DNA of 64,000 bases from an uncultured bacterium (GTDB taxonomy: Bacteria; Patescibacteriota; Minisyncoccia; Phycocordibacterales; PALSA-1337). Shown in pieces: positions 3,259 to 49,209 of this stretch. Location: NCBI GenBank assembly GCA_963701025.1, contig OY969557.1, positions 506,042-570,041 of the forward strand, in the 5' to 3' direction. The position numbers were made by a program, and so were the translations under genes. The notes under the pieces were generated by a model that was given only the letters and a program-made list of their open reading frames with translations, did no database searches and had not been told where the DNA came from. Within the stretch, counting starts at the first letter, position 1. Every line of letters begins with the position of its first letter.

Positions 3259-3705
3259 ATGAACGGAACATATGTGACTTTCGGGGAGATGCGCGCGCGG
3301 TTGGAGATCGACCTTATCGGCGGTTGCGTCGAAGTCCCGATGGCCGGCAAAATACATCGTGGCAGGCTCGATGACATCGATTGGTGGGAGATCGGGCACC
3401 CGCGTCGGATAGAATGGACGGAGGCCTTGATCTGGAACGACAAGTGGGCGTATTGGGAAGGAGCTACCGAAGGCTACCTCGATTTTCCCAAATCCAGCTA
3501 CGACTTCTTTGACGGTCCGTATCAAGCCGACAGCGGGGAATTCTTCTTTCTTTGTTACGGATGCAAGAGGACGCCCTATGTCACCGTCTTTCCGCGCGGA
3601 CTGGAGGCACCTGAATTTCCGGCCGACATGACGGCTTACTTCAAGCTTCATCAAAAAATAATGGGTCTTGACGATGAAAGGCTCAAAGCCGTGTTACGAA
3701 GATAA
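3259..3705 (+). CDS. Hypothetical Trp-rich protein
   Basis: An SD-like AAAGGGG lies 7 nt upstream of the ATG. A strong rho-independent terminator sits immediately downstream. It is preferred over the overlapping minus-strand ORF 3190..3654. Confidence 0.45.
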   Translation: MNGTYVTFGEMRARLEIDLIGGCVEVPMAGKIHRGRLDDIDWWEIGHPRRIEWTEALIWNDKWAYWEGATEGYLDFPKSSYDFFDGPYQADSGEFFFLCYGCKRTPYVTVFPRGLEAPEFPADMTAYFKLHQKIMGLDDERLKAVLRR

Positions 3706-3707
3706 GG

Positions 3708-3741
3708 CCGCTTCAAAAGCATGAAGCGGTCTTTTTTATTT
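3708..3741 (+). terminator. Rho-independent terminator
   Basis: Hairpin CCGCTTCA-aaagca-TGAAGCGG followed by TCTTTTTTATTTT. Confidence 0.6.
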
Positions 3742-7451: not shown

Positions 7452-10379
7452 TTAAGCCCGCATCCTTCTCCAGATATAGAATCCGAGGCTGGCGAGAACG
7501 ACCAGGATGACAACGTAGACGTATATAGAATAGTTGACGCCAGCCCCTCCCACGGCGGCTACTTGAGAGGCGCCTGGTGTGCCCGGATTGCCCGTGGCAT
7601 TACCGGAATTCGATCCCGCGGAACCGGTGGAGTTGTTAGATAGCGCCGGGATAAGAGGTGCCCCAACTGGCGGTTGGGTACCTCCCGGAGTCAGGACAAG
7701 GCCGTTCGCGCCATTTCCGGCGGCGGAAATGAAGTTCTGACCGGAGCCAGCAGCAGCCGCGGCCGCATTACCCGCCGCGGCGAGAGCGACGGCAAACGGA
7801 ACGGCAGAAAAACCGCCGAATGACGATCCGCTACTGCCTCCGCCCCCGCTCAATTGCGGAGCGGGCGGATTATTGACAACTACGGTTCTTGTCACCTCCA
7901 CGGCGGGATTGCCGGCGGTATCAGTCGCGTTGTAGGCGACCGCGTATGTGCCGGCAACCGATGTGTTCACTATGTCGCCGCCGACTACAGCCGTAGTAGT
8001 TCCGTCGACGGCGTCGAACGCTGTGGCGCCTTGTTCAGTGTATTTATCGCCGACGGTCAGGCCAATTGACGCATCGCCGTTCAGGGTGATGACGGGAGGA
8101 ATTGTATCGACTACGGTCACGGAGAATGTAGAAGAAGAAATATTATTGCTCGAATCGGTAGCCGTGCATTTCACCGTGGTCGCACCAATGGTAAAGGTCG
8201 AGCCGGAAATCGGCGAACAGGCGGCTGTGGAATCTCCGCTATATGCATCATGTGCGGCCGGCGAATCATATGCTACTACAGCTCCAGAGGACGAAGCTGC
8301 TTCGGCAGTCACATCTTTGTGTGCGTCGATGGCCGGAGGTATGGTATCGACCGCATGAACGACCCTCACTACGGGAATAGCCACGTTCCCATGGCTATCT
8401 GTCACATTATAGATAACCGAATAATCGCCTATGACATTGCCGTCAACGGTGCTGGTCGTGGCAATCTGGCTCGTGAGATCCCCGTCTACACTGTCCGAGG
8501 CCGTGGCACCGGCGTCTACATATGTGGAAGGCGCTTGGATAGTCACGTCTGGGCTGCCGATGAGCGTTATTACCGGGGCTGTCGTGTCTTCGACAGTCAC
8601 TTTGAATGACGTAGGCGATGCATGGTTGCCGCTCGAGTCGACGGCATTGCAATCGACGGTGGTAGTGCCGAATGGAAAGGTCGAGCCGGAAGATGGGACG
8701 CAGACCACTGGTACGGGGCCGTCAACATCGTCCGTCGCCTTAGGAGGGACGTACGAAACGGCCGCTCCGGCGAGCGAGGTCGCCTCCACAGTCATGTCTC
8801 CAGGGCTCCCGCTGATGACCGGGGGAGTATTGTCGTATATGGTCATAGTCCCGGTCGCTTCGCCGGCGTAGTTGGGATCGGTCGAGCTTGCGTCTACTGC
8901 ATAACTGCCGAAAGCAGAGGGAGCAGTCGACGAGCCGTTATAGCTTATGGCCACCGACACACCGCCAGGCGTGGTGGAAGCCGTTACGATCTTCGGCGAG
9001 CCGTCATACGCTTGGCTCAAGCCATTCAAAGAGATGGCGACTGGCGCCGGGCCGATGGAAATGGAGAAGCTTTGGGTGGTGGATGATGTGCCGTTATCAG
9101 CGGTGACGGAAAAATTGGAGACACCGGCCGCGGTCGGAGTGCCGGAAATAGCCTCCGAGCGTCCGTCCGCGGCGGTCGAAAAGGAGAGACCGGCCGGCAA
9201 GGAGCCAGAAGACGTAGTGAAGGTGAATGGTCCGTCCGCCGAAGTAAACAGGTTCACAGACACCGGCCGTGGCAAATGCCCGTTCGAAAAAATCCGCTGA
9301 TACAGTGTGTTGACGGTGCCAGTCACCAAGGAAGACGGTGAGAGGCTGACCGGCATCGGGGCGACCGAGACGACCACGTTAAAGGTGCCGGTGCCCACCG
9401 CACCAAGCGTGCTCGTAGCGGTGCAGATGACTGTAGTCGTACCTGCAGGAAAGATCGAACCGGAAGCCGGATTGCACGCCACGGGGAGTGTGCCGCCGAA
9501 CACATATCCTGTAATGTAGTAGTCCGAATACGAAACACTTGTTCCATAAACCCCGCCGGCGGTAGCAGTAATATCTTGCGTAGGTATACCACCTATAGAA
9601 GGTATAGCTGGCGCGAATATCACAGATATGGTGTGATCGAAATGCTGCGGAGCGGGGAAACCGAGTCCGCTGTATCCGGCTGTACTAGTACCACCTCCAT
9701 TGAGCTGGCCATCAATGTAATCGGTATAGCTGTTGGCGATATAGCCAGGATCAGGTTCGAAGGTGATCGACTCGGAATTCCCAGAAGGAACGGTGAAGGT
9801 GCCGAGGGGCGATATCGTGCCATGTGGGCCGGCCGAGGTATTAAAGGTAACTGCGCCCGCAGAGGCGGCAGGAAAGAATAAAGCGTCGGGAGCCATGTTC
9901 GATATCGTCTTGAGGCTTGGAACAGGCGGTGTGCTCGATGGACCAACTGGGACGGCATCTGACGAACCGGAGGAAGTAGCAGAGGATGTAACACTAGTGT
10001 CGACAATAGTTGTCGTTGAAGTTGTTAATGCTGTAGTAGTCGTTGGTGCTGTAGTAGCGTCCCCGGCGTTAACGACCGCTGTCGATGTCGTTGCAACATA
10101 TCCGACAGGAGCTTGATCTGAAGATTGAACTAGGGAGCCAGCACTATCAGTAGTAACAGGGGTAGGATCAACGGGAGGCGTTGACGACACATCCGCAGGA
10201 GCGGATTGCGTGTCAGTAGAGACTGTTGGAGTGCCAGAAGAATCTGGAGCGGAGTCATCGGCATGCGTCACGAGCATCGGTATGTTGGCATACGAGCCGA
10301 CGAGAGCGATGATGACCACCGCTGAAAGCATTCTTGCGAGGGAAATATGGATATATTTCATAAAAGTCATGAAAAACAA
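7452..10379 (-). CDS. Large cell-surface protein (975 aa) with HYR/Ig-like (DUF5011-like) repeats, Thr/Ser-rich linker, Gly-rich region and C-terminal TM anchor
   Basis: There is an N-terminal signal/TM segment. Repeated PPVI(S/T)L..D.TV motifs resemble HYR/Ig-like domains. The C-terminus is YVYVVILVVLASLGFYIWRRMRA, a TM helix plus basic tail. The gene is inserted between rplP and rpmC. Confidence 0.7.
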   Translation of the reverse strand: MFFMTFMKYIHISLARMLSAVVIIALVGSYANIPMLVTHADDSAPDSSGTPTVSTDTQSAPADVSSTPPVDPTPVTTDSAGSLVQSSDQAPVGYVATTSTAVVNAGDATTAPTTTTALTTSTTTIVDTSVTSSATSSGSSDAVPVGPSSTPPVPSLKTISNMAPDALFFPAASAGAVTFNTSAGPHGTISPLGTFTVPSGNSESITFEPDPGYIANSYTDYIDGQLNGGGTSTAGYSGLGFPAPQHFDHTISVIFAPAIPSIGGIPTQDITATAGGVYGTSVSYSDYYITGYVFGGTLPVACNPASGSIFPAGTTTVICTATSTLGAVGTGTFNVVVSVAPMPVSLSPSSLVTGTVNTLYQRIFSNGHLPRPVSVNLFTSADGPFTFTTSSGSLPAGLSFSTAADGRSEAISGTPTAAGVSNFSVTADNGTSSTTQSFSISIGPAPVAISLNGLSQAYDGSPKIVTASTTPGGVSVAISYNGSSTAPSAFGSYAVDASSTDPNYAGEATGTMTIYDNTPPVISGSPGDMTVEATSLAGAAVSYVPPKATDDVDGPVPVVCVPSSGSTFPFGTTTVDCNAVDSSGNHASPTSFKVTVEDTTAPVITLIGSPDVTIQAPSTYVDAGATASDSVDGDLTSQIATTSTVDGNVIGDYSVIYNVTDSHGNVAIPVVRVVHAVDTIPPAIDAHKDVTAEAASSSGAVVAYDSPAAHDAYSGDSTAACSPISGSTFTIGATTVKCTATDSSNNISSSTFSVTVVDTIPPVITLNGDASIGLTVGDKYTEQGATAFDAVDGTTTAVVGGDIVNTSVAGTYAVAYNATDTAGNPAVEVTRTVVVNNPPAPQLSGGGGSSGSSFGGFSAVPFAVALAAAGNAAAAAAGSGQNFISAAGNGANGLVLTPGGTQPPVGAPLIPALSNNSTGSAGSNSGNATGNPGTPGASQVAAVGGAGVNYSIYVYVVILVVLASLGFYIWRRMRA

Positions 10380-14089: not shown

Positions 14090-14908
14090 ATGACATCAGC
14101 ATATCTCATCAGCGTCTTTAGTCTCATGCAAAACAGCCCATATTCGATAGTGGCTACAGCCCTCGTCACAGCTCTCATCGCCGCCCTCATCATCCACATC
14201 CTCTGGCGGAAGCTCCGGGAGGACGAGAGATCGAAATACGAATTCATCACCATCATGGCCCACAAGTTCCGCACGCCGCTCACCCATATCAAATGGGTCT
14301 CCGAGGAGTTATCCGGCAACACCCAGGAAACGTCGACGCGCGAAGGCCTGAAAGAGATCCAGAAAGCCGACAAGAACCTGGTCGGCCTCACAACGACATT
14401 GATCGAGCTAACGGATTCTGATACGGACCACGCCTTGTATTCATTCGAAGCCACCGATCTGTGCGATTTCGTCAAGACGATCGGCGAGACGGCGAGGCGG
14501 ACCTTCCAGGAGAAGAACATCTTCTTCTCGGTCGCCTGCGACAGCGGCCCGGTATTCGCCAAGATAGACAGACCGCGCATGGAATTCGCCGTTCAAGTGC
14601 TCATGGACAATGCCTTCGCCTACACGCCGACGGGCAAGAAGGTGGAGATTTCGGTCGGCGGCTCCGGACACAATGCAGTCATATCGGTCAAGGACGGGGG
14701 CATCGGCATTCGGGAATCTGACGTGAAAAAGATATTCGGCAAATTCTTCCGGGCGGACAATGCCAGAGCCGCGGATACCGAGGGATTCGGCATCGGGCTC
14801 TATCTCGCCCGGTCAGTGGTCAAAAAACACAAAGGAAAGATCACGGCCTTCTCGGAGGGAGAAGGCCGCGGTTCGGTATTCAATATAATACTGCCCCGGT
14901 CGCGATAG
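14090..14908 (+). CDS. Orphan mini sensor histidine kinase (single TM, HisKA + HATPase_c, no sensor domain)
   Basis: H-box MAHKFRTPL. N, G1 and G2 boxes are present (DGGIGI, GFGIGLYL). One N-terminal TM helix. No response regulator lies nearby. Confidence 0.85.
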   Translation: MTSAYLISVFSLMQNSPYSIVATALVTALIAALIIHILWRKLREDERSKYEFITIMAHKFRTPLTHIKWVSEELSGNTQETSTREGLKEIQKADKNLVGLTTTLIELTDSDTDHALYSFEATDLCDFVKTIGETARRTFQEKNIFFSVACDSGPVFAKIDRPRMEFAVQVLMDNAFAYTPTGKKVEISVGGSGHNAVISVKDGGIGIRESDVKKIFGKFFRADNARAADTEGFGIGLYLARSVVKKHKGKITAFSEGEGRGSVFNIILPRSR

Positions 14909-17236: not shown

Positions 17237-17545
17237 ATGAAAGTCATGCCGACAGAAGAAGTAGATGCCTTCATAGAGACCTGTGAGAAAAGGGTCCGTG
17301 CCAAAATCAGCAGACGTTTTCTAATGCTTGAAAAGTTTGGTCCTATGATCCGTATGCCTTATAGCAGATATATTCTCCCTGGAGTTTTTGAGCTTCGTAC
17401 AACAGGAAAAGACAACGTGCGGCTAGTTTATGCATTTATAAACGATAAGGCGGTCGTGTTCTATGCGTTTATAAAAAAGACCGAGGAGATAAGCGCCCAC
17501 GAGATAGGCTTAATAAAACAAAAGCTTAAGAACTTGCATTTATGA
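17237..17545 (+). CDS. Type II toxin, Gp49/RelE-like (HigB-like, DUF891 family)
   Basis: About 100 aa, toxin-first order, overlapping an XRE-HTH partner by ATGA. Confidence 0.6.
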   Translation: MKVMPTEEVDAFIETCEKRVRAKISRRFLMLEKFGPMIRMPYSRYILPGVFELRTTGKDNVRLVYAFINDKAVVFYAFIKKTEEISAHEIGLIKQKLKNLHL

Positions 17546-17847
17546 CTTATACGGCATATACTACCTTTATGAAAACAGTAAATTGGAGAGAGAGGCATGA
17601 GAAAGACATGGAAGACCCTGAATACAGAAGGGAGTGGGATGCTCTTGGGCTCGAATTCGATATTATCCACGCCATCATCCGCAAACGCATCAAGGACGAC
17701 ATGACCCAAGCCCAGTTGGCCAAAAAGATGCGCACCGGCCAGGCGACTATTTCGCGTTTGGAGTCTGGAACCTACAATCCTTCAGTGAAATTCCTTCGCA
17801 GACTGGCCAAGGCGTTAGACGCGGAGCTCACGATCAGGTTGGTGTGA
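17542..17847 (+). CDS. XRE-family HTH antitoxin (HigA-like)
   Basis: HTH motif (MTQAQLAKKMRTGQATISRLESG) and a 4-nt overlap with the upstream toxin. Confidence 0.7.
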   Translation: MTYTAYTTFMKTVNWRERHEKDMEDPEYRREWDALGLEFDIIHAIIRKRIKDDMTQAQLAKKMRTGQATISRLESGTYNPSVKFLRRLAKALDAELTIRLV

Positions 17848-20447: not shown

Positions 20448-21902
20448 TTATTGGACGATATTGAACACTCCATCGCTCGAATCGCAATTACTTGTGCCTG
20501 ATTGACAGATCTGGACGCTATATTGGCCGTCGGGAACGGTACCGACGTCACCGGTTCCACCATTACCATTTATATTACTGTATTGGCCCACATCCCAACT
20601 ATATGAATCCTGGTTGATTGCTATGCCTGTAGCTATCGTATATGGCGCGAGCATATACATCGGACACATCGAACCGGCCGGGCACGGTGCTTGATACGGC
20701 ACGAGCTTCAAGTCAGCCGTCGTTGCGGCGAAATAATACGGCGATGTCCAGACGATATTCTGCGTCGTTCCACGCGCCCACGCTTCTCCGCCGTTGGGAG
20801 AGATTATTCTCAAAGGACTAACCGCCGTTGAACCGGTGACATTGACCGTCGAGGTCGTTTGAGCTTGCAGACCCGCATTATCCCTGACAGTGAAAGTGAT
20901 CATGTATGTGCCTGGGTTCGAATAGACGTGAGTGAAGGAAGTACTCTGGATGAAAGCCATCGCCATAGCAGGAGTGGCGCAGGTCGCCGGATAGTTGCAA
21001 TTCGGCGAATCTCCCCAATTCACGGAATAACTCAATACCCCATTGGCCGGATCGCTGGCGTGAATAGTCCATGTGCCCGTCTGATTGACAGAGAGCGACG
21101 TCGGCGCATCTATGCCGCTAATGACCGGCGTTTGACCATTCGTTACCCCATTCGTAGTGATCGTGAAATAATTATCGCTGTCATCGCACTGCGAACCATT
21201 CGTGAGACAAATCTGGATCTTGTATTGGCCAGAGGCTATTGGCGTCATTTGATCAGGACAAGATGTCGCGAACGCATCACATGGTATTGCCAAAGGTACT
21301 GAATTTCCAACATTCCAGGCATACGAATCAGAACCAAGGTTGACCCCGCTCGCAATAGTCAGAGGCGCACGCACCGCGATCATGCATCTGATCGGCTGAC
21401 CGGGCTCCGCACAGGCCGGCACAGGAAATTCAAGTCTGATGTCTCCCGTCTGATTGAGCGCGCCCGGCGTGCCGGTCCACGTGATGTACTGCGTCGTTCC
21501 GGTTTGCCACGTCTCGCCGCCATTTGGCGAAATGACTCGGAGAAAATCGGTCGGATTGTTATCGTTGTTACCGCCGCCGTTCAATATCTGGCGGGTCAAG
21601 GGCCCAAAGAAGCCGAAGGCCGGAAGACTGACGGATGTCTGATATCTGATGAGAGCGGCTTTGGTCTGCGAGCCGAAGTAGCCTTTTGCGGCACTGCCGG
21701 AACTGATGGCCGGTATGTCATAGCCGTTCGAGATGAGCCACGTCTGGAGATTGACCACATCCTGCCCGGAACTGCCGACGGTTAAGTTGTTCGAGAATGT
21801 GTAGTCTTGGGCATAGACGCTCGATTTGGCGCCGGCGACAAGGGCGATAGCGATAATGGCAATGGCAACGGCAATGGCGGTAAAAATGAGATATTTTTTC
21901 AT
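20448..21902 (-). CDS. Secreted surface protein with N-terminal PG_binding_1-like domain, repeated beta-sandwich modules (ISPNGGE.W..GTTQ.I.W) and a PKD-like domain
   Basis: Probable start MKKYLIFTAIAVAIAIIAIALVAG (signal/TM); the ORF is open to 22007. PG-binding pattern LTVGSSGQDVVNLQTWLISNGY...FGPLTRQIL. PKD-like segment YSVNWGDSP. Confidence 0.7.
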   Translation of the reverse strand: MKKYLIFTAIAVAIAIIAIALVAGAKSSVYAQDYTFSNNLTVGSSGQDVVNLQTWLISNGYDIPAISSGSAAKGYFGSQTKAALIRYQTSVSLPAFGFFGPLTRQILNGGGNNDNNPTDFLRVISPNGGETWQTGTTQYITWTGTPGALNQTGDIRLEFPVPACAEPGQPIRCMIAVRAPLTIASGVNLGSDSYAWNVGNSVPLAIPCDAFATSCPDQMTPIASGQYKIQICLTNGSQCDDSDNYFTITTNGVTNGQTPVISGIDAPTSLSVNQTGTWTIHASDPANGVLSYSVNWGDSPNCNYPATCATPAMAMAFIQSTSFTHVYSNPGTYMITFTVRDNAGLQAQTTSTVNVTGSTAVSPLRIISPNGGEAWARGTTQNIVWTSPYYFAATTADLKLVPYQAPCPAGSMCPMYMLAPYTIATGIAINQDSYSWDVGQYSNINGNGGTGDVGTVPDGQYSVQICQSGTSNCDSSDGVFNIVQ

Positions 21903-22023
21903 GCTGATGATGACGGATGAAATGGATAATTGTTTCAGACCAATGATAGCTCCTAATCGCCAAAATAGGAAGAGAAAACCGCCCCGAGGAGGGCGGCTTT
22001 CTGACACAAGAGCTTATTCGCTA

Positions 22024-25000
22024 TTAATGAGTCGCGTACCACTGATTGACCGCCGCATTGACGGCGTCCCAGATGGAGGCGGTGTAGTTTGTTTGCGGCA
22101 ACAAGGCCGTCGCGCTCACTCGAAGTCCGCTAAGCCCTTGGGTAATGGAACTCGCTTGAAGGCTGCTCGGGCTCGTTCCGTAATTTATCTGGTTGACCTG
22201 GAAAGAGGAGAAGCCTGCAGTGCCCGAAGACATGATCGTGCCATTGTAGGTGAACTGACGAGATGAACCGGCGGGGATGACGTAAGAACCATTGCTAGCT
22301 GTCGGATTGGTATCACCGGACAGGTTACCCGGGTTCGTTATAACGCCGGCAATAGGTAGATTCAGTGTGGCAGGTCCTGTGTTCGTGATACCGAGGGATG
22401 TGGACGGATTTGAACTGATATATATGGTGCTGTTAGCGGCAGTAAGCGTGAAGGAGTAGCTGACGTTATAACCAGTGGTGATAGCGACGCCACCGACATT
22501 GCTCGTGATCGGCGAACCGAGGACGGCTGATGTATTGCTGACTTGGACCACACTAGAGACGAATGTGATGGGGCTCCCGCTAAGATTTGCATTTGTCACT
22601 TGGACGGTATTGTACGACTGATCCACGATCACAACATTCGAGTTATTAGCCGCAAGGCTTACCGTAGCGCTGGAACCGTTTAGGGCACCACTTGAATCAG
22701 CGGCAACTGTACCAGAGATGGTGACCGGAATATTGCTACTAGCCGGCAACGGGATACTGATATTGGTGAACGAAACAGACGAACCATTGATAGAGCTTGC
22801 CGAGTAAGTGAGGCCGCCAGCCTTGACCTGGATATCGGAGAATAGGCTAGAAACGGAAGCGCCAGTCGTGTTTATGTTCACATTGAGAGAGTTGAGGGTA
22901 GCGGGTGCGTTCTGGACATTGATGTCGAAGACAGCGAGAGGAACATTATTAGTCTGGGCCGTGGTCGATATTTGTACCATGCCCGCAAGCGGCGAGGAGG
23001 CGTCAAGCGAGAGGGTGGCCGTTGCGGGATTGTTGGTATTTCCAGAAGTTACAGTGAAGGAATTAGACATGGCTTGAGCGCAGGAATAATTCGTACATGG
23101 GGCACCTTGATTGGTACGCTGAACAACCTGTACAAAATAAGATCCTGCTGGAACACTAGAAGGGATAATGAATGATACCGTCTGTTGATTTCCACTTATG
23201 CCAGTTACATTACCGAGTGCATAGATTGGTGATCCCTCTCCTCCAGCATAATCCAGGTTAATCAGATATTGATCTCCCTGTGATGGATTAGAGAACGTGA
23301 CACTCAACTGACTGCCAACTTGAAAAGTTTGTCCTCCTGTTGGAGACACGATACCTACACTTGGTGCATTACCAGTTATAGTCACGTTAAATTCTCCACA
23401 GCTTGTTGTGCTTATGTATGCGCCCGCAGGACAAACAGCTATAGTATATGTACCGTTTGGAATGTTAGAGATCCCTTTCCAATTACCTGATGCTGAGCCG
23501 ACATTCCACTGGAACCAACCACTATTCGGGTACGATGAGGCGAATGGATAATAAGTACTTCCAATCTCAAGATAAATATCGACGGTGGATACATTTCCAG
23601 AAGATGTCCATGTCCATGATCCAAGAGTGGATTGTTGCCAAGTGACACTACTTGAAGGAGAGGTGATTTTGATAGATGACTGGGTGGTCGTCACGGTCAC
23701 CGGCGCGGGAGTGATCGATGAAGCCGGAATCTGCGCCGTCAGAGACGTTCCATCGGTGAATTGGACATAGAGAGTACCACCGGGGAATTGCGAGCGTTCC
23801 GGCTGGCCGTACATGGACAATGTGTGCGTTCCGGCCGTGAAGGATAGCGGTACGTCATAGCTGTGGTTAAGCTGGACGCCATTCTCGTATATCACCAACG
23901 GATAGAGTCCGAAGGCCGATCCGGTGAACCAGCGTTCCCAATTATTACCGTCAGACAGATATATCCATTGAGCGGTCTTCGCCGTCGGCAGAGTCATGAC
24001 GGCGGTCCAATCCCAATCGTTCGAGGTGAAGCCTGTGCCGTTCGACGTGCCCGGTCCGAGAATGCCATATGTGCCGGCCATGTCGCTCGAAGCGCTGGCT
24101 ACGTAAGCATATAGGGATCCCTGCGACTGCGTGGTAGACGGAGCCGGGGCCGGAAAACCGGTTTGATAGGAGCAGGTATAGCCAGCGGGACATGATGGGG
24201 TCGTATTCGTGCTTCCAACCTGTACCGAAGCGCTCGTATGCGCGGTCAGGCCGGCGGCATTTTGAACAGTAAAGACGACATTGTAAGTTCCGGCCATTTT
24301 GTAGACATGACTGAAAGTCGATGTCTGGACGGATGAGCTCTTCATCGCGGAAGGTGTTAGCGCTTCGACGATGGTATCGCCCCAATTGACCGAGTAGGTC
24401 AATGAGCCATTCTGCGGATCGGACGCATTGACCGTCCACGTGCCCATCTGGCCGACATTGAGAGATGTCGGGAATGTGCCGCCGGAGATGACGGGGGGTT
24501 GAGGAGCAGTAGTCTGCGCCAGCGTGATCGTGAAATAATTGTCGCTCGAGTCATGGATCCCTATGACTGCAGGATTGCCATAATCGGAAGCCAACAGGAC
24601 TTTATATTGCCCGGCAATGATGGTTCTCGGAATATTGGTACATTGATAATTCTTACCGAGAGTAGCCGTGAAATAACCTTGGCTGACCGGAGCGCTTCCT
24701 AACAAGCATGTTCCACCATCAGCAAAATTAAGGTAGACATACACATTCCCTGTGAGACCTGATGATATCCATGTCGTCCTAAAATCTACATTTTTCACAC
24801 CGAGACTTATTTGTTCCCCTCCATTGGGATAGGTAACGGTGATGGAAGGCTGGGTGGTGCCTAATGGATTAACAACAAGACTACCGGTCGTTAACTTATT
24901 ATTGTTCGAGTCATACACATAAACCGTGTATTGACCGATAGCAAGCGCCGGCGATACAGTCACTGACCAATTACCGTTTATGACTGAAATCAAACCGCTA

Positions 25001-26340
25001 CCATATATCTTGTCACCGCCATTGCTCCCACTTAAAACAATTCCGACTTGAGTCGTACCATTAGCTGTACCCGATATAGTGGGTGTCAAAGAAGTGGTCT
25101 GCACGCTACTGGTGATAGTGGCAGATGATTGAGTTTGCACGCCACCGAATGTCACCGTGACTTGGAGACTTTGCAGGCCGGAGGTGATAGAGTACCCATT
25201 AACATTGTTTGGATTTGTACTGTAATTGATATCTGCAACCTGAACAATATTGGCTCCGCCAACCGTAGCGGAAGCACTACTCACCGTACCGTTAAATGTA
25301 AACTGGCGTGAAGCGCCCGGAGGAATCATCCAGTAGCTCGATGTGTCGCCAGCCAAAGAGGCTGGGTTCGCCATTATAGCACCTTTATCTGGGCTTGCAT
25401 TCCCATTCTTACTGGCAAAGTCAAGCATTATCGCGCTGGTGAGATATATCGGACTATTCCCTGCCGTCAGGGTGAAGGCAAAAGTAACTGGATAACTTGA
25501 GATGATTCCATTGGTTCCAACAGTAGGTGATCCAAGTGAAGCAGATGTATTGCTGACTTGAACACCGTTGTTGCTGACGGTAGAAGACGCTAGAGTGAAG
25601 TTATTACTTAAACCTTTTATAACAATAAATCCTTTCTCGTTATTAGTATTTACAGGCACGATTACGTGTGCCTCGATGTCTACTTCATATTGGCCTGGAG
25701 AAATTGGATATCCTTGCACGATCTCCGGCAGAGTAGTGTTCCAAGAAAATTGTCCGCTGCTTGCATTCAGACCGCTTGCAATCTCATCCACAATGACACC
25801 ATTAGCACTATTAACAAGATATATATACGTCTCAGAGTTAGAGGGAATATTTTGTGTCGACCATTGAATTGTAAAATTCTGACCTTGTGTAATAGTCTCT
25901 CCTCCTTTTGGATTCACAACCGTTACCGACGATTGTGTCGGATTCGTCGTTGTGCACGATCCATTGAGCGCGGCGCGAGTCAGGGCTCCGAAATATCCGG
26001 TAGCCGGGATGCCAACGCTGGCCTGATATTTGGCCACAGCGCCGGCGGTCTGGTAGCTGTAGACGCCTCTCTGCTGGCGGCCGGAAGACAAAGCCGGGAT
26101 ATCGAAACCGTTGCCCAAAAGCCACGTCTGCAAAGCGACGACGTCAGGACCCCTGCTGCCTATGGTCAGGTTAGTCGACCAGACATAGCAGGAAGAAGCT
26201 CCTCCGCCCCCACCGCCTACCGACACGGGAGTCGATATCGGCGCAATGACTTGGGCTTGTACCGAGACATACGAAAAAGCAACGATCGCGAGAGAGAATG
26301 CCGCGACCGGAACGACGAGCGAGAACAAGGCTCTTTTCAT
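22024..26340 (-). CDS. Giant secreted surface protein (1438 aa) with N-terminal PG_binding_1-like domain, long Ser/Thr/Asn-rich beta-repeat region and a PKD-like domain
   Basis: Signal peptide. PG-binding pattern (GSRGPDVVALQTWLLGNGF...GYFGALTRAAL). YSVNWGDT PKD-like motif. Paralogous architecture to the 20448-21902 gene. Confidence 0.75.
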   Translation of the reverse strand: MKRALFSLVVPVAAFSLAIVAFSYVSVQAQVIAPISTPVSVGGGGGGASSCYVWSTNLTIGSRGPDVVALQTWLLGNGFDIPALSSGRQQRGVYSYQTAGAVAKYQASVGIPATGYFGALTRAALNGSCTTTNPTQSSVTVVNPKGGETITQGQNFTIQWSTQNIPSNSETYIYLVNSANGVIVDEIASGLNASSGQFSWNTTLPEIVQGYPISPGQYEVDIEAHVIVPVNTNNEKGFIVIKGLSNNFTLASSTVSNNGVQVSNTSASLGSPTVGTNGIISSYPVTFAFTLTAGNSPIYLTSAIMLDFASKNGNASPDKGAIMANPASLAGDTSSYWMIPPGASRQFTFNGTVSSASATVGGANIVQVADINYSTNPNNVNGYSITSGLQSLQVTVTFGGVQTQSSATITSSVQTTSLTPTISGTANGTTQVGIVLSGSNGGDKIYGSGLISVINGNWSVTVSPALAIGQYTVYVYDSNNNKLTTGSLVVNPLGTTQPSITVTYPNGGEQISLGVKNVDFRTTWISSGLTGNVYVYLNFADGGTCLLGSAPVSQGYFTATLGKNYQCTNIPRTIIAGQYKVLLASDYGNPAVIGIHDSSDNYFTITLAQTTAPQPPVISGGTFPTSLNVGQMGTWTVNASDPQNGSLTYSVNWGDTIVEALTPSAMKSSSVQTSTFSHVYKMAGTYNVVFTVQNAAGLTAHTSASVQVGSTNTTPSCPAGYTCSYQTGFPAPAPSTTQSQGSLYAYVASASSDMAGTYGILGPGTSNGTGFTSNDWDWTAVMTLPTAKTAQWIYLSDGNNWERWFTGSAFGLYPLVIYENGVQLNHSYDVPLSFTAGTHTLSMYGQPERSQFPGGTLYVQFTDGTSLTAQIPASSITPAPVTVTTTQSSIKITSPSSSVTWQQSTLGSWTWTSSGNVSTVDIYLEIGSTYYPFASSYPNSGWFQWNVGSASGNWKGISNIPNGTYTIAVCPAGAYISTTSCGEFNVTITGNAPSVGIVSPTGGQTFQVGSQLSVTFSNPSQGDQYLINLDYAGGEGSPIYALGNVTGISGNQQTVSFIIPSSVPAGSYFVQVVQRTNQGAPCTNYSCAQAMSNSFTVTSGNTNNPATATLSLDASSPLAGMVQISTTAQTNNVPLAVFDINVQNAPATLNSLNVNINTTGASVSSLFSDIQVKAGGLTYSASSINGSSVSFTNISIPLPASSNIPVTISGTVAADSSGALNGSSATVSLAANNSNVVIVDQSYNTVQVTNANLSGSPITFVSSVVQVSNTSAVLGSPITSNVGGVAITTGYNVSYSFTLTAANSTIYISSNPSTSLGITNTGPATLNLPIAGVITNPGNLSGDTNPTASNGSYVIPAGSSRQFTYNGTIMSSGTAGFSSFQVNQINYGTSPSSLQASSITQGLSGLRVSATALLPQTNYTASIWDAVNAAVNQWYATH

Positions 26341-26563: not shown

Positions 26564-28732
26564 TTATTTCCTCTTCTCCACGATCTCCAGAGCAACGTTA
26601 GCCGGAACGACCTCGTAGTGATCGAATTCCATCTGGGCAGATCCTTGGCCGGACGTCATGGAACGCAATTGGGTGGTATAGCCGAACATCTCCGACAACG
26701 GGACTTTGGCGATGATGGAGATGACTTGGCCCTTTGGATTACTGCCCTCGATAAGGCCTCGCTTGGAGGCGATGGAGCCGTTGACGTCGCCCATGTACTT
26801 CTCGGGACAGACGACTTCGAGCTTCATGATGGGTTCGAGGATGACGGGTTTGGCGCGCTTGGCGGCGTCCTGGAAGGCCTGGCTGGCGGCGATCTTGTAG
26901 GCGATCTCGGACGAGTCGACGTCATGGTACGAGCCGAAAGTCAGCTCGCAGGAGATGTTGACCATCTTGAAACCGGCGACGATGCCGCGATCCATGAGCT
27001 TCGCGCACGCCTTTCTCCACGGCCGGGATGAATTCGTTGGGGATGACGCCGCCTTTGATGGAGTTGATGAATTCGAAATCGTCATAGCGGTGAATATTCT
27101 TGGGTATCTTCTCACCTTCCGGCCATGGCTCCATGGGCTTGAGAGTGAGTCTGACGTGACCATACTGGCCTTTGCCACCGGTCTGCTTGATGTATTTATG
27201 CTCGGCCTCGGCGGTGCCGAGTATGGTCTCGCGATACGCCACTTGCGGTTCGCCGACGTTGGCTTCGACGCCGAATTCGCGCTTCATGCGGTCGACCATG
27301 ATTTCGAGGTGGAGCTCGCCCATGCCGGAGATGATGGTCTCGCCCGTTTCCTGGTTGGATGAGATGCGGAATGTCGGGTCTTCATTGCCAAGCTTGCGCA
27401 GAGCCATGCCCATCTTCTCCTGGTCGGCCTTGGTCTTTGGCTCGATGCGAAGAGAGACGACCGGCTCCATGAATTTGATGACTTCGAGAATGATCGGATT
27501 GTTTTCGTCGCAGAATGTATTTGAAGTGAGGGCATCCTTTAGTCCGACGGCCGCGGCGATCTCGCCGGCGAAGACCTTCTTGACCTCTTCGCGCTTGTCG
27601 GCTTGGAGGCGGACGATGCGGCCGAGGCGCTCTTTCTTGCCGGTGGTGGAGTTGTATATATAGGTGCCGGCTTCGATGGTGCCGGAATAGACGCGGAAGA
27701 AGGTCAGTTGGCCGACGAAGGGGTCGTTCTGAAGCTTGAAGGCCAGGGCGCAGAAAGGTTCGCTGTCGCTGGCATGGCGGACGACTTCTTCGCCTGTGTC
27801 CGGATTGATGCCGTGAACAGGCGGCATGTCGAGTGGGCGACGGCAGATAATCGACGACGGCGTCGAGAACGAGCTGCACGCCGATATTCTTCAGAGCCGA
27901 ACCGGTGAAGACCGGGAAGATCTTGTTGGCGATGAACCGCGGCGCGGGCTACGCGCTTGAATTCGTCTATCGAAATCTCCTTGCCGTCGAGATAATTCTG
28001 CATGGCGACATCATCGTGTTCGACGACTTTCTCGATCATCTCGGCGCGGTATTTCTTCGCATCCGCCATAAGCTCCTCCGGAATCTCTTTCTCCACTATC
28101 TTATTTCCCATCTCGCCCTCGAAATAGTAGGCTTTCATGTTCAAAAGATCGACGACGCCCTTATGCTCGCCTTCGAGGCCGATCGGTATCTGGAATCTGA
28201 CGGCGTTCTTGTTCAGGCGCTCGAGTATGGACTTGTATGATTTCTCAAAAGAGGCGCCTGTGCGGTCGAGCTTGTTGATGAAGCAGAGGCGCGGCACCTT
28301 GCCCTCGTCGGCATAGCGCCAGTTGGTCTCCGACTGCGGCTCGACGCCGGCCACGCCGTCGAATACCACGACCGCGCCGTCAAGGACGCGCAGTGAGCGC
28401 TTCACTTCCACAGTAAAGTCGATGTGTCCCGGAGTGTCGATGATGTTGAACCGGACTTTCTTGGAGACATCGGGCTTGCCGTCGGCGCCTTTGACGCCGT
28501 TCATGTATGTCGGGTTCCAGAAGCAGGTGATGGCGGCGGCCGTGATGGTGATGCCGCGCTCGCGCTCCTGTTCCATCCAGTCCGTGACCGTGTCGCCTTC
28601 GTGCACCTCGCCGATCTTGTGCGTCATGCCCGTATAGAAGAGGATGCGCTCCGAAGTCGTGGTCTTGCCCGCGTCGATGTGGGCGATGATGCCAAAGTTA
28701 CGGACTGATTCGAGCGGATAGTCGCGGTTCAT
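26564..28732 (-). pseudogene. fusA: Elongation factor G (fusA) interrupted by three +1 frameshifts, near 27934, 27835 and 26995
   Basis: The G domain through domain V are recovered only by switching frames three times. RAAV|[11 protein letters not shown] needs an extra base removed at about 27934. LPSP|LDMPPVHG needs one C removed from a CCC run at about 27835. VREA|MDRGIVAGF needs an extra base removed at about 26995. Confidence 0.85.
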
Positions 28733-28879: not shown

Positions 28880-29161
28880 TCAATTATTCCCCAACCAGAC
28901 TCTGTAGATCCAATCATGCGTACCGCAAGTCATGAATGCCACGGTATCTTTGTCCACGAATTTGAAGGCGATACGATAAGTGGAATCTATCCGGATGGTC
29001 CAAATCTGCTTGCCTTTTGGTTCCAGTTTCTCGGTGTGCAAAGAAGGATAGAACGGGTTGTACCGGAACAGGCGCTCCTGTTTCTCTGCTTTCTTCTGGA
29101 CTTCAACGGGCAGGAGCTTATAGCGCCTTTTGAATTCATCGGTTACAACGACCTTCCACAT
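28880..29161 (-). CDS. Type II toxin, RelE/YafQ-like mRNA interferase
   Basis: 93 aa with a C-terminal TCGTHDWIY segment like the YafQ/RelE GTH motif. It is preceded by a small antitoxin-like gene. Confidence 0.55.
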   Translation of the reverse strand: MWKVVVTDEFKRRYKLLPVEVQKKAEKQERLFRYNPFYPSLHTEKLEPKGKQIWTIRIDSTYRIAFKFVDKDTVAFMTCGTHDWIYRVWLGNN

Positions 29162-29166
29162 GGAAT

Positions 29167-29373
29167 TTAGGCGCGAAGTTCCCTAAGGCTGTTGATGCGC
29201 GTCGCTCGGCCGGTGCGTATGTCTCGTTCGGCTCTATCTATGCTCTGAAGAAAAGACTTGTTGAACATGCCGAATTCGGCCGCCATCCGCTCGAAGCGAT
29301 TAGCATCGAAACTGACGGAGACTGTCCGTGCTTTCTTGCCTTTGGCTACTTTCATGCGCATATTCATGCGCAT
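29167..29373 (-). CDS. Putative antitoxin partner (small, basic; family unclear)
   Basis: 62-68 aa ORF whose stop is 6 nt before the toxin start. The alternative start is the Met at 29355. Confidence 0.4.
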   Translation of the reverse strand: MRMNMRMKVAKGKKARTVSVSFDANRFERMAAEFGMFNKSFLQSIDRAERDIRTGRATRINSLRELRA

Positions 29374-29404
29374 ATTGTATCAAGACGCGTGAAATACGCA
29401 ATCC

Positions 29405-29436
29405 TTGCGGTTCATTTCCACCATGTGAGCCACAAG
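29405..29436 (+). repeat. 32-nt hairpin repeat, copy 2 (upstream flank of the toxin-antitoxin cassette)
   Basis: TTGCGGTTCATTTCCACCATGTGAGCCACAAG matches copy 1 at 27 of 32 positions (31 of 36 with 4 extra flanking nt), about 570 bp away in direct orientation. Confidence 0.8.
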
Positions 29437-29866
29437 AAAAGAAAACTTGCACCAGAACATGCCTAAAAACATTTTCAATATTGACCTTCAAAAATTTTCC
29501 GTTAAACTTATAGGGTATGCTCTATAAATATTATCGTATTACATATCATCAGACTGACAGGATCGCCCAGATTTTCGGGGATTTAGGGGTCGTATGCCTA
29601 GCATCTGTAGCAATCCCCTCGCTTTTCAATGATTTTAATATTTTCGCCATATCGTTCGGAATCATACTTTCTTTATTCTTCTTATGCCTGACATAATCAT
29701 CGTCTATCTATTCTTCGCAGTTATAGGACTGGGCTTCATACTATTGACTCTGCCTACTATGATCGCCCGCCGTATCGTTGAGCAGCAAAAGAGAGAGGGT
29801 CTATACAAAACAAAAAAGTAAGCCTACGCCTGCTTTTTTGATGTTCCAAATTGGAATTTCAAACGA

Positions 29867-32012: not shown

Positions 32013-32027
32013 ATAATAGGCCTAGAT

Positions 32028-32267
32028 TCACCCCTCCCTATTCCATTCTCTCTTTGAAATCCCCGCCTGCCGTAAGATTTCGGCCAGTAGATACTTTGAG
32101 ATATCGCCAGTATGAGGATTTGGTATCCGGACTTTGAGCGGTCCTTTTGACATGAACAAGTGACGTCCACCGGAATATGGGCCATCGAAACCGAAAACGC
32201 GGAACCTGCGGATAAGCTCACGCGGAGAAACGCTCCTAAGCATGTCGGAATTGTTTCCGCTTATCAA
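32028..32267 (-). CDS. hicA: HicA-family mRNA interferase toxin
   Basis: 79 aa, LIRRFRVFGFDGPYSGGRHLFMSKG...HTGDISKYLLAEILRQAGI is a HicA/YcfA pattern. Confidence 0.7.
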   Translation of the reverse strand: MISGNNSDMLRSVSPRELIRRFRVFGFDGPYSGGRHLFMSKGPLKVRIPNPHTGDISKYLLAEILRQAGISKREWNREG

Positions 32268-32481
32268 AAGAGAATGACAAACCGGTCACGCGTTCGCCGG
32301 AACGGACTTTGACCATGAGCCAATCCTCCAAAACTTCTTGCAATTCGCGACGGCATGCTTCGAGGCTTCGGGCGCTAGCCCAGACGCCGCGTAAGGCTTT
32401 GATCTCGCCAAAATAGCTCCTGTTAGGAAGGATCTTATATGAAGCCGTATCGAGTTTTGAGCTTATAAATGAAGAAAGCAT
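32236..32481 (-). CDS. hicB: HicB-family antitoxin (UPF0150-like)
   Basis: YFGEIKALRGVWASARSLEACRRELQEVLEDWL matches the HicB core. It overlaps hicA by 32 nt. Confidence 0.6.
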   Translation of the reverse strand: MLSSFISSKLDTASYKILPNRSYFGEIKALRGVWASARSLEACRRELQEVLEDWLMVKVRSGERVTGLSFSFDKRKQFRHA

Positions 32482-32526
32482 GATATCGATATTATATACT
32501 GACGGACAGTGAAAGTAAATCTTTTC

Positions 32527-37031: not shown

Positions 37032-37864
37032 CTAGAATGCGCCGAATTCATCGATTATTCTCTGCTCGTCTTCGAGATCGACCGACTTTTTATGCTTGGC
37101 GCCTTTAATTCCCTTGACCCGTTTCTCGCATTCCGGCCATGAATGATGGACTTCGATGACGCCACCGACCATGCTCACGTATGAATACGCTTTGGTCCGC
37201 CGGCTGGCTGACGAGCGAGAGGAAGCCGACTTCTTTTTCTCCAAGTCGGCCTCGTTGTGCGAGATGTCCAATATATCCGGCAAGTCATAGCCGCCGATAG
37301 CGTACCTTTATACAAGGCAATCTTCCTTCCGTCGGCAAAAGCCGTGGCGATGTGATCGCACCTCTCATTGCCTAGAATCCCGATGTGACCGCCGACATAT
37401 TTCCACTCGATGTTTCCGCCGGATGATTTGACGGCGCCGGCGACATCATCCAGTTTTTTCCAAAGGTCTGCGTTCAATACGCTTTTCCTCGCCTTGGTCT
37501 TCCAGCCATTCTTCTTCCAAGAGTGAATCCACCTCGTTATTCCGTTGATGACGTAAGAGGAGTCTATGTAGAGGATGATTCGTACGCCCTTTGATTCTTT
37601 GCCTTGTAACTCGCATAGCGCGTGTGTCGCCGCCATGAGCTCCATCCTATTATTCGTCGTGTCTTTTTCGCCACCGCCAAACTCTGTAACCTTCGCGGCC
37701 TTATTTGCGGCCTTGTTTTTATTTTTTCCGACGACCATTCTTCCGCTGGCTGGCGGATTTCCATTTTCAATGACGATCGCTCCCCAGCCGCCTGGACCCG
37801 GGTTTCCGCGAGATGAGCCGTCAGTGAAGATGGTGACGGGATTTTTATTATTCATAGATGTCAT
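37032..37864 (-). CDS. rnhA: RNase HI with C-terminal Cauli_VI-like hybrid-binding domain; reading frame broken by one frameshift near 37300
   Basis: RNase H fold motifs (TDGSS..., MELMAA, DSSYV, NERCDHIATAFA). After ...ALYKG the frame shifts to ...YAIGGYDLPDILDISH...YSYVSMVGGVIEVHHSWPECEKRVKGIKGAKHKK, a Cauli_VI/HBD pattern. Consistent with a 1-nt deletion in a TT run. Confidence 0.7.
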
Positions 37865-38105
37865 GGTCTCTTATTTGGTAAAATCTCGCCATGCCTTTGC
37901 CTTCAAACTTGAATATGATGCGAAACTTGAAATTAACAGAGAAAGCATACCGTCCCGCAAGCCTGCCCGACAGTTTATGAGTCTTCAATTCGACATCAAA
38001 AGGGTCCTTTTTGAAAATCGATTCCTTCTCCCCTGTCAAAATCTTTACTGCGCTCGGCAATCTCCTGAATTGCTTGACGAATTTGGAATGAAAAAAGATG
38101 TGCAC
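37848..38105 (-). CDS. RelE/ParE-family toxin
   Basis: 85 aa with KLSGRLAGRYAFSVNFKFRIIFKFE...RFYQIRDHDIY. Confidence 0.65.
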   Translation of the reverse strand: MHIFFHSKFVKQFRRLPSAVKILTGEKESIFKKDPFDVELKTHKLSGRLAGRYAFSVNFKFRIIFKFEGKGMARFYQIRDHDIYE

Positions 38106-38115
38106 GCGTGCAATT

Positions 38116-38334
38116 CTATCTTATATCGCGCACTGAATCAAAATGCTTCCAATTCTTTCCTTGCTTGAAATCTTTGTCCGCCCTATCTAACTCCATCGCC
38201 AACCTCTCGGTATTCCACATCCTCAAAATATGCCGGAAGAACTCGCTCGTTGAAGCGAAGCGGCCGGCCTTGACCTCCTTTTTGACTTCAGCGGCCAGAG
38301 AAGCGGGTAACGATATGTTGATGACGGAGCGCAT
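38116..38334 (-). CDS. ParD/RHH-type antitoxin
   Basis: 72 aa with ISLPASLAAEVKKEVKAGRFASTSEFFRHILRMW, a ribbon-helix-helix pattern. It lies 10 nt upstream of the toxin. Confidence 0.6.
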   Translation of the reverse strand: MRSVINISLPASLAAEVKKEVKAGRFASTSEFFRHILRMWNTERLAMELDRADKDFKQGKNWKHFDSVRDIR

Positions 38335-38394
38335 AATGGTGTGTATTATTTGTAATATATTGTATTACAAGCATAGCAAAAGGGTTTTTTATTG

Positions 38395-44911: not shown

Positions 44912-46820
44912 TTATGGCCCGATCGACACCGGTTGCTGTTGCCAACCGCTACTGATGCCCACCGAAGAGATCGTAGTCGTGGCATACCCAGGCTTTCCGA
45001 CCGATATAGTGTAGCCGTTTGCGCTCGTGAATAGTCCCTGAAAGAGGACTTGTCCCGGCGGTATGCAACCGGATGTATAAGAAAACGTCACATCAGAGAC
45101 GCTTGGCGTGACCGTGGCGGTATTAGTCGTGAGATACGCCATGTAGCGCGAAAATTCATTGTTATTGCTTACACCGTTGATCGCTCCGCCAGGAACAGTG
45201 AAGTAGGTATTGTGCGTTCCATCTGGGCCGAGATAATCCGACCACGAGAACGTAGAAGTCGAGGTCGGTTTTGTTGCAAACTGGAATTTGACCGGCATCG
45301 GACCTGTGAGGAGCGCTTGGCTGGCCGGCTTCCAAGACAGTGTGTAAAAATTGCTGGTTGTACCGGTGTCAAAAACCGATGATTCAAGGGTGCCGGTCGC
45401 CGTAGTGTTATATGGATCGCCGATCGCATTCCAATGCAACTGTATGTTCCCTGAAGATGACGCCGTAGCCGTGTCTACGCCACCACTATTAGTACTGGAA
45501 TATGCGCTTTGGTCAATATAGAGGCCATTTTGAATAGGACCATGTGACCAATCCGTCTGCGAAAGATACCCCACTCCTGTTGTCTGAAACTGGTCATACG
45601 CGCCGTTCGAGAGCTCGACTGTCGCTCCAGAAACCGGCAATTTGCTTACCTTGTCAGCAACGGACACCATGAGGCTGTTACCGCTCTTCGGCACGACAAC
45701 CAATTGTATATTTTGGGAATTATTCGGATTGAGCGCGAACGGACTTGGAGGATTGATCCCTTCGACATCATATGTGGTATCAGTCGGCGTGATTGTATAC
45801 GTATCCCATTCCATAGAATTCATGTCGAGAGCGCCACCAGCTCCAGTTGATAGATTCGTTGAGGGATATTTGAGGATGAGTGACGGAGTAGTTGCTATGG
45901 TCTTTGATCCCGCCAGAGAAAAGTGATAGTTGGATATGGCTACGCATGTAGGATTGACGCTTGTGAAATGCAATGAACTTAATCGATCTATGGCAAAGCT
46001 GATACTGGTCACTTGCTGATTGATAACATTCGCATCAGGCTTGGAAGGAGTAGGACCGGCCAATCCACCTGCGGCATATGTCCGGTCTGTCGAATAGCCC
46101 GGTTTAGCTACCGTGATCCGGTACATATTCGCGCCCGGCGCCACACCGATGATGTTCAGCGTGCCGTTATTGTCCGTAAAATCATGGTCCTGGACAGTCG
46201 AGGTGGCCAGGCTCTGCAGCGTCGTCGAAGCGTCTTCCACCGGATTGCCGTTGGCATCTATAACATTGATGACGACTGCTCCCCCATTCGATGCCGACTG
46301 CAGATTGGCCGGAGAGACTTGTCCCGTCAGGATAACCGGCTGGAAATCCTTGCAGGTCGGGCATTCGACGTCTACTTCGACCAGCTTGTCGCTGGCCTGG
46401 AGCTGGATACTCGTCGCCAAATTGATATTGCGGACGGTCAGAGGTGACCGTGAACGTATATCCGCCGCGCGTGAGCGTCTGCGTCTGCGGCAGGATGCCG
46501 AGAGGAATGCCGTTCGTCAGACCGACGGACACATAGGGCATGTTCCTGACGATCTCGAATTGCTCGTCGGCCAATTCGACTGCCAGCGTTCTCGCCTGAC
46601 TTCCGCTCGCCAACTGTATCAGGCTCGTAAAAGCGCCGTATGAGGCGATCCCCACTACCAAGAATAGCGCCGTGCCTACGAGGACCTCAACGAGGCTGAA
46701 GCCCTCGTGGAAAACAACGGGTTGAGGGGACCCTGCGAGCGCGTCGGCGCGAGCACGAGGAATTTTCCAGCAGGAAAATATCCGTGTCCCTGAAGCCTGT
46801 TGTTTTCCACGAGGATTCAT
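44912..46820 (-). CDS. Large pilin-like protein (prepilin signal GFSLVEVLV) with a single +1 frameshift near 46435
   Basis: The N-terminal ORF (46182..46820) and the 502-aa ORF (44912..46420) join if one nucleotide is removed after ...TVTSDRP. Confidence 0.6.
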
Positions 46821-48215: not shown

Positions 48216-48896
48216 CTACCATATTTTCCGGAGATACTTCTTATCGATGACTTTGCGTAAATCCTTGTTCTTGCCGGTAAAATGGTCTTTGAGCGCGCCG
48301 CTTATTAGGTCTGACATCTGCATGGCATTCACGTATTCGGAGTTCACGTGAGTGATATGTCTTATCCGTCGAATAGTCTTGGTGTTCACTCTGTCTAAAA
48401 GATACTTGTTGAAATTATCGAATTTACCTTTGAACATGCGCCTGTCCGCTCGATCGATGACGACTTCAGCTTCAATTAAATTCTGGATTTTCGCCGTGAA
48501 TAGAACAAGCTTTGACAGATTGTAGTCGTCAAAAATATTGTGGAGCTTGGCGTCATCTTTCACGGCAAACTTGCCTTTATATTTAGCCTTGTCGATCAAG
48601 CGATAATATACGGTAATGCCTAGCTGATTGATGATATCCAGCAATTCTTCGTACATATCCAAAGGGATGATAGTCGATTTTATCTCGCTCTTGAAGCCGA
48701 ACTTATTCCTTATCTCCATGATCTTGTTTTCCAAGGCAAAAAGCTTCGCGGAATCCAGATAAACGGCGGAGAGTATGTAGAAAAGACTGGATCCTGTAGG
48801 AATTTTGTTGCCGGCGGCATCAATATCAAAAGGCTTGCCGGGATCTCCGGATTCGTCGACGAAGATGTAATGTTGCGCGTTTGCCATGCGCGACAT
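48216..48896 (-). CDS. DUF3800 domain protein (AT-rich island)
   Basis: N-terminal YIFVDESGDPG is a DUF3800 hallmark. Low GC. Confidence 0.6.
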   Translation of the reverse strand: MSRMANAQHYIFVDESGDPGKPFDIDAAGNKIPTGSSLFYILSAVYLDSAKLFALENKIMEIRNKFGFKSEIKSTIIPLDMYEELLDIINQLGITVYYRLIDKAKYKGKFAVKDDAKLHNIFDDYNLSKLVLFTAKIQNLIEAEVVIDRADRRMFKGKFDNFNKYLLDRVNTKTIRRIRHITHVNSEYVNAMQMSDLISGALKDHFTGKNKDLRKVIDKKYLRKIW

Positions 48897-48912
48897 TGTA
48901 GCATTTATCTAT

Positions 48913-49197
48913 TTACCTTTGTCGATATTCCGTCAATATCTCCTGCGGCGACTTTCCTTTGAGCGCTTTGTGCGGAAAATAATTCCAAGCGTCGGTAACT
49001 GTTTCCAATACATTGCTCAAGTTTTCTATGTCGCCATCGTCGAACATAGCGATGATGTGCTGAAAATCGTCATTGTCTTCTTCTAGGTATATTGAAACAA
49101 TCACGTCGTCCACGCTAAAATCGCTGTTCGTCTCTTTCAACAATTCTGCAAGCTCCATTTTGAGCTCGGTGCGGCGAGCAAGGATGGGTTGGGACAT
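48913..49197 (-). CDS. Hypothetical acidic protein (94 aa), AT-rich island
   Basis: Clean ORF between the DUF3800 gene and the R-M gene. No recognisable motif. Confidence 0.35.
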   Translation of the reverse strand: MSQPILARRTELKMELAELLKETNSDFSVDDVIVSIYLEEDNDDFQHIIAMFDDGDIENLSNVLETVTDAWNYFPHKALKGKSPQEILTEYRQR

Positions 49198-49209
49198 ACG
49201 AGCCGTGTT

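Follow-up and report, generated by a model that had tools for sequence, protein, structure and literature searches.

The gene for EF-G (fusA) does not form a single open reading frame in the Patescibacteria genome sequence considered here. Within the stretch of 64,000 nucleotides that we analyzed (hereafter, the window), its reading frame shifts three times, and other genes in the window are also frameshifted. The locus therefore raises the question of whether fusA is decaying, whether it is expressed through an unusual decoding mechanism, or whether its extra bases belong only to the deposited sequence. To address this question, we repaired the affected reading frames, compared them with homologues, and analyzed the distribution and sequence context of the extra bases. 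Coordinates of the relevant features are listed in Table 1.

The fusA reading frame

On the minus strand, fusA spans 2169 nt, from an ATG at 28732 to a TAA at 26566-26564. Along this span, the reading frame passes from 0 to 1 to 2 and back to 0, with shifts at about 27934 (gcggttCatcgcc), 27834 (tcgcccActcgac) and 26996 (gaagctCatggat). Because the three +1 shifts total +3, the start and stop codons lie in one frame. Deleting one base at each of these positions yields an uninterrupted EF-G of 721 amino acids. When the repaired protein was compared with the window by using tblastn, fusA was covered by four HSPs (frames -1, -2, -3 and -1) that meet at residues 266/267, 299/300 and 578/579. A DNA alignment with six intact relatives, which exhibit 67-83% nucleotide identity, contains three bases present only in the window and no gaps present only in the window. 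Thus, frame tracing, tblastn and the alignment with relatives all confirm the three +1 insertions, and their coordinates, that were proposed in a preliminary description of this DNA.

Over 100% of its length, the repaired protein shares 95% identity with its closest homologue (P0001), which also has 721 amino acids. Its best homologues are full-length proteins of 713-723 amino acids from Patescibacteria (Paceibacteria, Taylorbacteria relatives), and the Pfam domains GTP_EFTU, D2, EFG_III, EFG_IV and EFG_C are found in all of the best 120 matches. Both full-length similarity and this set of domains identify the repaired protein as EF-G, and the gene follows rpsL and rpsG, as expected for fusA in the str operon. 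The neighbors of fusA had been described as intact, and we find likewise that rpsL, rpsG, the genes coding for S10 and L3, and tuf, which shows 98% identity to a relative, are unbroken.

At most frameshift sites, which base is the "extra" one is ambiguous. A first alignment placed an inserted A within leucine codons at the fusA sites. Residue frequencies in homologues make this parse less favored, with both readings possible. The residue that follows extra base 1 is Ile in 117 of 120 homologues and Leu in three, and the residue at extra base 3 is Met in 109 of 120 and Leu in 11. Because Ile and Met are favored, we assigned the extra base to the third position of the preceding codon. At extra base 2, the Pro and Leu residues are both conserved among homologues. 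Relatives carry both of the alternatives at fusA sites (GTT CTC and GTT ATA; GCT ATG and GCC ATG).

The frameshifted rnhA ORF and the middle fragment of fusA, each with its out-of-frame tail, as well as rpsL and tuf, have exact matches on only one NCBI/ENA contig, of 876,331 bp. The frameshifts therefore belong to the deposited record of a single-contig genome. An exact look-up of the repaired EF-G sequence in the protein collection found no match. One protein (P0362) that falls into a common 90% cluster with the fusA fragment was considered as a representative of the same species, but was rejected because it is only an 89% relative. Several matches to fusA that extend over roughly 2.6-3.2 kb (L012, L023, L010, L033 and others) were considered as possible inteins. 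In these relatives, the search tool had merged fusA with the GTPase domain encoded by the neighboring tuf gene.

Table 1. Positions of the frameshifted genes and associated features. Numbering starts at the first base of the window. A slash precedes the extra base or bases.
Feature	Position	Strand	Remarks
fusA (EF-G)	26564-28732	minus	four frame segments, three extra bases; repaired product 721 aa
fusA extra base 1	27933-27935	minus	GTT/C then ATC (Val-Ile); alternative reading C/A/TC, with the A extra
fusA extra base 2	27834-27837	minus	CCC/A then CTC (Pro-Leu)
fusA extra base 3	26995-26996	minus	GCT/C then ATG (Ala-Met)
rpsG	30337-29867	minus	followed by a small toxin-antitoxin pair, then fusA
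rpsL	30824-30405	minus	upstream of fusA
rnhA (RNase H and C-terminal viroplasmin-type domain)	37032-37864	minus	two extra bases, 37291-37290 (GCG/GC TAT)
Pilin-like gene (602-606 aa in relatives)	44912-46820	minus	one extra base, about 46439 (TCT/G or ACC/T)
Type IIG R-M gene (HSDR_N, Eco57I/N6_Mtase and TaqI_C)	49210-52048	minus	one extra base, 51391 (CTT/A)
pilB (type IV pilus ATPase)	52088-53851	minus	15 extra bases at 12 places; repaired product 582 aa
In-frame TAG in pilB	52330-52332	minus	residue 504; variable column (P/S/T/K/Q/N in homologues)
rny (RNase Y)	61888-63421	plus	one extra base, 62266 (CTT/G)

Extra bases in six genes

Six genes in the window together contain 23 extra bases and no missing ones: three in fusA, 15 in pilB, two in rnhA, and one each in rny, the R-M gene and the pilin-like gene. 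No deletion was found at any frameshift in the window, and no event exceeds 2 nt. The mixture of insertions and deletions reported in the preliminary description is incorrect, as all 23 events are insertions; the sites in rny, rnhA and the remainder of pilB that were taken for deletions are in fact single or double insertions (+1 in rny and +2 in rnhA). Crude scoring of frames by codon usage is too weak by itself to detect frameshifts.

The pilB gene is far more heavily affected than the two sites and an unspecified remainder reported earlier, and it also carries an in-frame TAG. Its extra bases are at positions 53767, 53721, 53639, 53152, 53151, 52946, 52921, 52629, 52583, 52345, 52317, 52313, 52309, 52221 and 52205. 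An independent DNA alignment with two relatives (L082 and L083) agrees with frame tracing, and contains 15 window-only bases and no gaps. The repaired PilB is 93% identical to a homologue (P0121), and its length is the modal length of 120 homologues. A deletion of one base at about 53152 was considered, but the lengths of homologues show that this site is a +2 insertion. The in-frame TAG adjoins three consecutive codons that each have an extra G (52317, 52313 and 52309). It may reflect a pair of +1 and -1 events or a substitution error.

A one-base deletion in rnhA was similarly ruled out by the lengths of homologues, since exactly four residues separate LYKG from YDLP in all 74 parsable homologues, whereas the deletion model needs five. 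This site is therefore a +2 insertion. The rnhA linker (about 37200-37215) also has four more residues (SRRT) than do the homologues with which it was aligned. These residues could be a true in-frame insertion or could result from further consensus errors totaling 12 nt. In the repaired RNase Y, the RNase_Y_N domain is uninterrupted (positions 2-199 of 201), and KH and HD domains are also present. For the pilin-like gene, tblastn gave two HSPs, in frame -3 and then frame -1, with the junction at 46446/46441. A frameshift in the R-M gene had been noted previously with its site left open; the frameshift is indeed present, and the site can be assigned to a single extra base.

This R-M gene belongs to a 3.8-kb island of low GC content (0.43-0.44) that is located between pilB and pilC, at 48216-52048. 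The island contains genes for the 945-amino-acid type IIG R-M enzyme and a DUF3800 protein, and a 94-amino-acid ORF. In the syntenic relatives L082 and L083, the island is absent and pilC directly follows pilB.

The extra bases are strongly clustered. In pilB, 15 events are observed and 0.63 are expected (P = 4.5e-16), and 17 of the 23 events are inside 7.5 kb around the strain-variable R-M island (P = 7e-12). Conversely, 39.8 kb of other ORFs contain no events, compared with an expected 14 (P = 6e-7). With 97-98% identity to relatives, NusA, TrmB and tuf match or exceed fusA and pilB in conservation. They are nevertheless intact, which indicates that the cause of the errors is local. The same observation led us to reject the possibility that clustering results from reads of other species that cross-map onto conserved genes, because these three genes are more conserved than pilB and are nonetheless clean.

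Possible origins of the extra bases

Although the fusA frameshifts do exist in the deposited sequence, their most likely origin is single-base error in the assembly consensus rather than biology. When all technical causes are taken together, a technical origin of the frameshifts, as was also suggested in the preliminary description, appears highly probable, and the cell almost certainly has an intact EF-G of 721 amino acids. As to the specific cause, we think it reasonably probable that the 23 extra bases are consensus errors that arose because the consensus combined templates that differed slightly, for instance strains of a single Patescibacteria population assembled together. We infer both this mixed-template origin and the use of long reads for the assembly. 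Under this model, both alleles would be written in succession (N1 N2 X Y) at some single-nucleotide differences, instead of one being chosen. Doubling would be easiest where X or Y equals the neighboring base, because an aligner could then treat the SNP as an insertion. Every doubling would add one base and so shift the frame by +1. Such doubling would be most natural for polishers that penalize indels less than mismatches.

Only insertions occur, and the repaired EF-G and PilB appear fully functional, both of which suit this model. Several properties of the sites are also consistent with it. All 18 events in fusA and pilB are compatible with a codon in which two different bases occupy a doubled third position (for example, GTT/C, CCC/A, GCT/C, CTT/G, ACG/C and TAT/C). 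As a null model, the same homologue-likelihood classifier was applied to simulated random or base-duplicating insertions, of which a fraction of 0.61-0.65 was compatible with such a reading. Relative to this null, the lenient form of the test (18/18) gives P = 1e-4 to 5e-4, and the strict form, in which only the best parse is accepted (15/18), gives P = 0.02-0.04, which is moderate to marginal. The event sites in these two genes are also at or beside columns that vary among homologues, with a mean entropy of 0.9-1.0 versus gene means of 0.34 and 0.46. Permutation with 120 homologues gives P = 1e-4 to 8e-4 for this enrichment, or 0.003-0.02 after clustered sites are merged. Tests of third positions and of column variability serve as proxies for natural variation in the population. 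Taken together, doubling at third positions, the variability of the columns and the presence of both alternatives in relatives suggest that the extra bases stem from natural variation.

In contexts read by eye, 19 of 22 events duplicate an adjacent base (binomial P = 4e-4), as would result from aligning a SNP as an insertion where the adjacent base is the same. Among X/Y base pairs that were also listed by eye, approximately 11 of 16 are transversions, an excess over transitions that natural SNPs do not usually show. To account for the two +2 events and for the TAG in pilB, the mixed-template model would have to be made more complicated. The errors are clustered and the rest of the consensus is accurate, as a mixture of templates would produce. 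If the population is polymorphic for the R-M island, read support on the flanks of the island would be mixed.

Related errors are known from other assemblies. The collapsing of alleles in a PacBio assembly leads to INDEL errors, and to apparent frameshifts where nearby allelic variants cause reads to be misaligned (PMC8445201). The window resembles this case, in Trypanosoma brucei Lister 427, where the collapsed consensus contained truncated ORFs; in both, the errors are local rather than uniform, and the genes affected show perfect conservation otherwise. However, T. brucei Lister 427 is a diploid eukaryote in which the errors were verified by reads and phasing, whereas the "alleles" in our model would be those of putative co-assembled strains of an uncultured bacterium. 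Moreover, the pure bias toward insertions and the third-position pattern observed in the window are not reported for T. brucei Lister 427 (PMC8445201).

Other technical errors could, in principle, produce extra bases with no mixture of strains. These include random or base-duplicating long-read insertions at low coverage or with poor polishing, and modification-dependent basecalling. Long-read MAGs pass quality standards despite many frameshift errors, which are a well-known property of such genomes (PMC9262707). Errors of this kind fit with the exclusive occurrence of insertions and with the duplication of neighboring bases, and local drops in coverage would give clustering. As in the homopolymer errors of Nanopore and PacBio MAGs (PMC9262707 and works cited there), single-base indels split genes in a contiguous, single-contig genome. 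However, classical long-read homopolymer errors occur in runs of at least 5 nt and are spread along the contig. The extra bases in the window are instead found in runs of one to three bases (one to three at each of the fusA sites, with a single A4 elsewhere), and are clustered rather than even, with no deletions. All 115 homopolymers of at least 5 nt in intact ORFs are in frame. Random errors would also show no preference for synonymous codon positions or for columns that vary among homologues, and both preferences are observed. A modification- or motif-dependent basecalling error, which was the example of a technical cause given in the preliminary description, gains some plausibility from the type IIG methyltransferase gene in the window, but the 21 site contexts share no 4-mer or 5-mer beyond chance (best uncorrected P values 0.0045 and 0.0011, respectively). 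On balance, we regard a technical cause other than mixed templates as rather unlikely.

If the insertions were instead real and recent mutations, fusA, pilB and the other affected genes would be young pseudogenes, and a functional second fusA would be expected elsewhere in the genome. The frameshifted ORFs are present in the deposited record, pilB has an in-frame TAG in addition to its frameshifts, and the pil operon is interrupted by the R-M island, all of which would suit gene decay. However, neutral decay would yield many more substitutions than indels, and the repaired proteins show hardly any unusual substitutions. The 15 indels in pilB are accompanied by one private amino acid change (that is, a residue absent from all 120 homologues) and the three in fusA by none, whereas the homologue medians are 2 for EF-G and 3 for PilB. 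At columns that are otherwise invariant, both repaired proteins lack private residues. The earlier observation that conservation is perfect on both sides of each fusA shift is thus borne out, but not the accompanying suggestion that this fusA might be a decaying copy, as it exhibits no excess of substitutions, no deletions and no multi-base indels. Bacterial pseudogenes are deletion-biased, whereas the window contains no deletions and no indels longer than 2 nt. Thus, neither the excess of unusual substitutions nor the mixed indel spectrum of a decaying pseudogene is found. In addition, mutation in a dead gene does not produce a bias toward synonymous or variable positions, and decay would have to affect essential and unrelated genes (fusA, rny and rnhA) together. 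No second fusA was found in the 64-kb window by using tblastn with the repaired EF-G, for which the sole match other than fusA is the GTPase domain of tuf, and two copies of fusA would be unlikely in an 876-kb Patescibacteria genome. We therefore consider true pseudogenes improbable.

The least plausible explanation is that the insertions are real and that the genes are expressed through recoding, by programmed +1 frameshifting, quadruplet decoding or transcript editing. All events can be counted as +1, the total for fusA is +3, and one fusA site is CCC A, a kind of site that is prone to +1 slippage. As in the +1 frameshifting of prfB (RF2), one extra base would have to be skipped to make the full-length protein. 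Unlike prfB, the sites have no slippery and stop context of the CUU-UGA type and no upstream Shine-Dalgarno stimulator in common, and they occur in more than 10 different sequence contexts with no common signal. The 0-frame sequences at the fusA sites are GTT CAT CGC, CCC ACT CGA and GCT CAT GGA, which contain no stop codon and no shared slippery codon, and only CCC-A could re-pair. Conservation also argues against recoding: all three extra bases in fusA are absent from each of the six relatives, those in pilB are absent from both of its two relatives, and the best 120 EF-G homologues are full-length. In reduced endosymbiont genomes, slippage of transcription at poly(A) tracts can rescue frameshifted genes. 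The present case is similar in that the genome is small and essential genes appear frameshifted, but such rescue needs long A/T homopolymers, and no homopolymer at the shift sites is long enough for transcriptional slippage. Scans of the window for tRNAs and Rfam families found no tRNA gene and no known recoding RNA element or other Rfam element, and pilB would require 15 recoding events in 1.76 kb. Recoding is consequently very improbable. The same extremely low probability applies to the full scenario in which a clonal Patescibacteria population truly carries the extra bases in its DNA, has no second fusA, and yet makes full-length EF-G, PilB, RNase Y and RNase H. If true, this scenario would need efficient +1 recoding, through quadruplet decoding or context-independent shifting, at many nonslippery sites.

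Consequences for annotation and layout of the window

The biologic importance of these frameshifts is low, and nothing new about translation follows from them. Their significance concerns data quality, in that a public, single-contig "complete" Patescibacteria genome probably has at least 23 spurious insertions in 64 kb that split six genes. Relying on its annotation would lead to fusA, pilB, rny and rnhA being mistaken for pseudogenes or counted as absent. The signature described here, which consists of insertions only, in clusters, at synonymous or variable positions and with long homopolymers unaffected, may make it possible to flag mixed-template errors without reads.

Four stretches of 490-560 nt each (3178-3735, 29374-29866, 32013-32526 and 37865-38394) have no convincing ORF, tRNA or Rfam match. 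More damaged genes could be hidden in these regions.

The ribosomal protein operons in the window are interrupted at several points. Between rplC and rplD, a Gp49/HigB-like gene and an HTH gene (17237-17847) resemble a toxin-antitoxin pair within a ribosomal protein operon, and a gene for a HigB/ParE-like toxin together with a small ORF is located between rpsG and fusA (28880-29373). The S10/spc cluster is broken after rplB by a histidine-kinase-like gene on the opposite strand (14090-14908), and before the rpsQ-rplN-rplX-rplE block by a gene for a 975-amino-acid surface protein (7452-10379); both genes were identified by eye. Approximately 6.3 kb separate fusA and tuf, and this interval includes genes for two large secreted or surface proteins of 1438 and 519 amino acids (20448-26340) that have PG-binding-like and PKD-like repeats. 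The closest relative (L001, 5368-10163) has genes for PKD proteins and PemK toxins at the fusA-tuf position, and in more distant relatives tuf starts approximately 150-650 nt after fusA.
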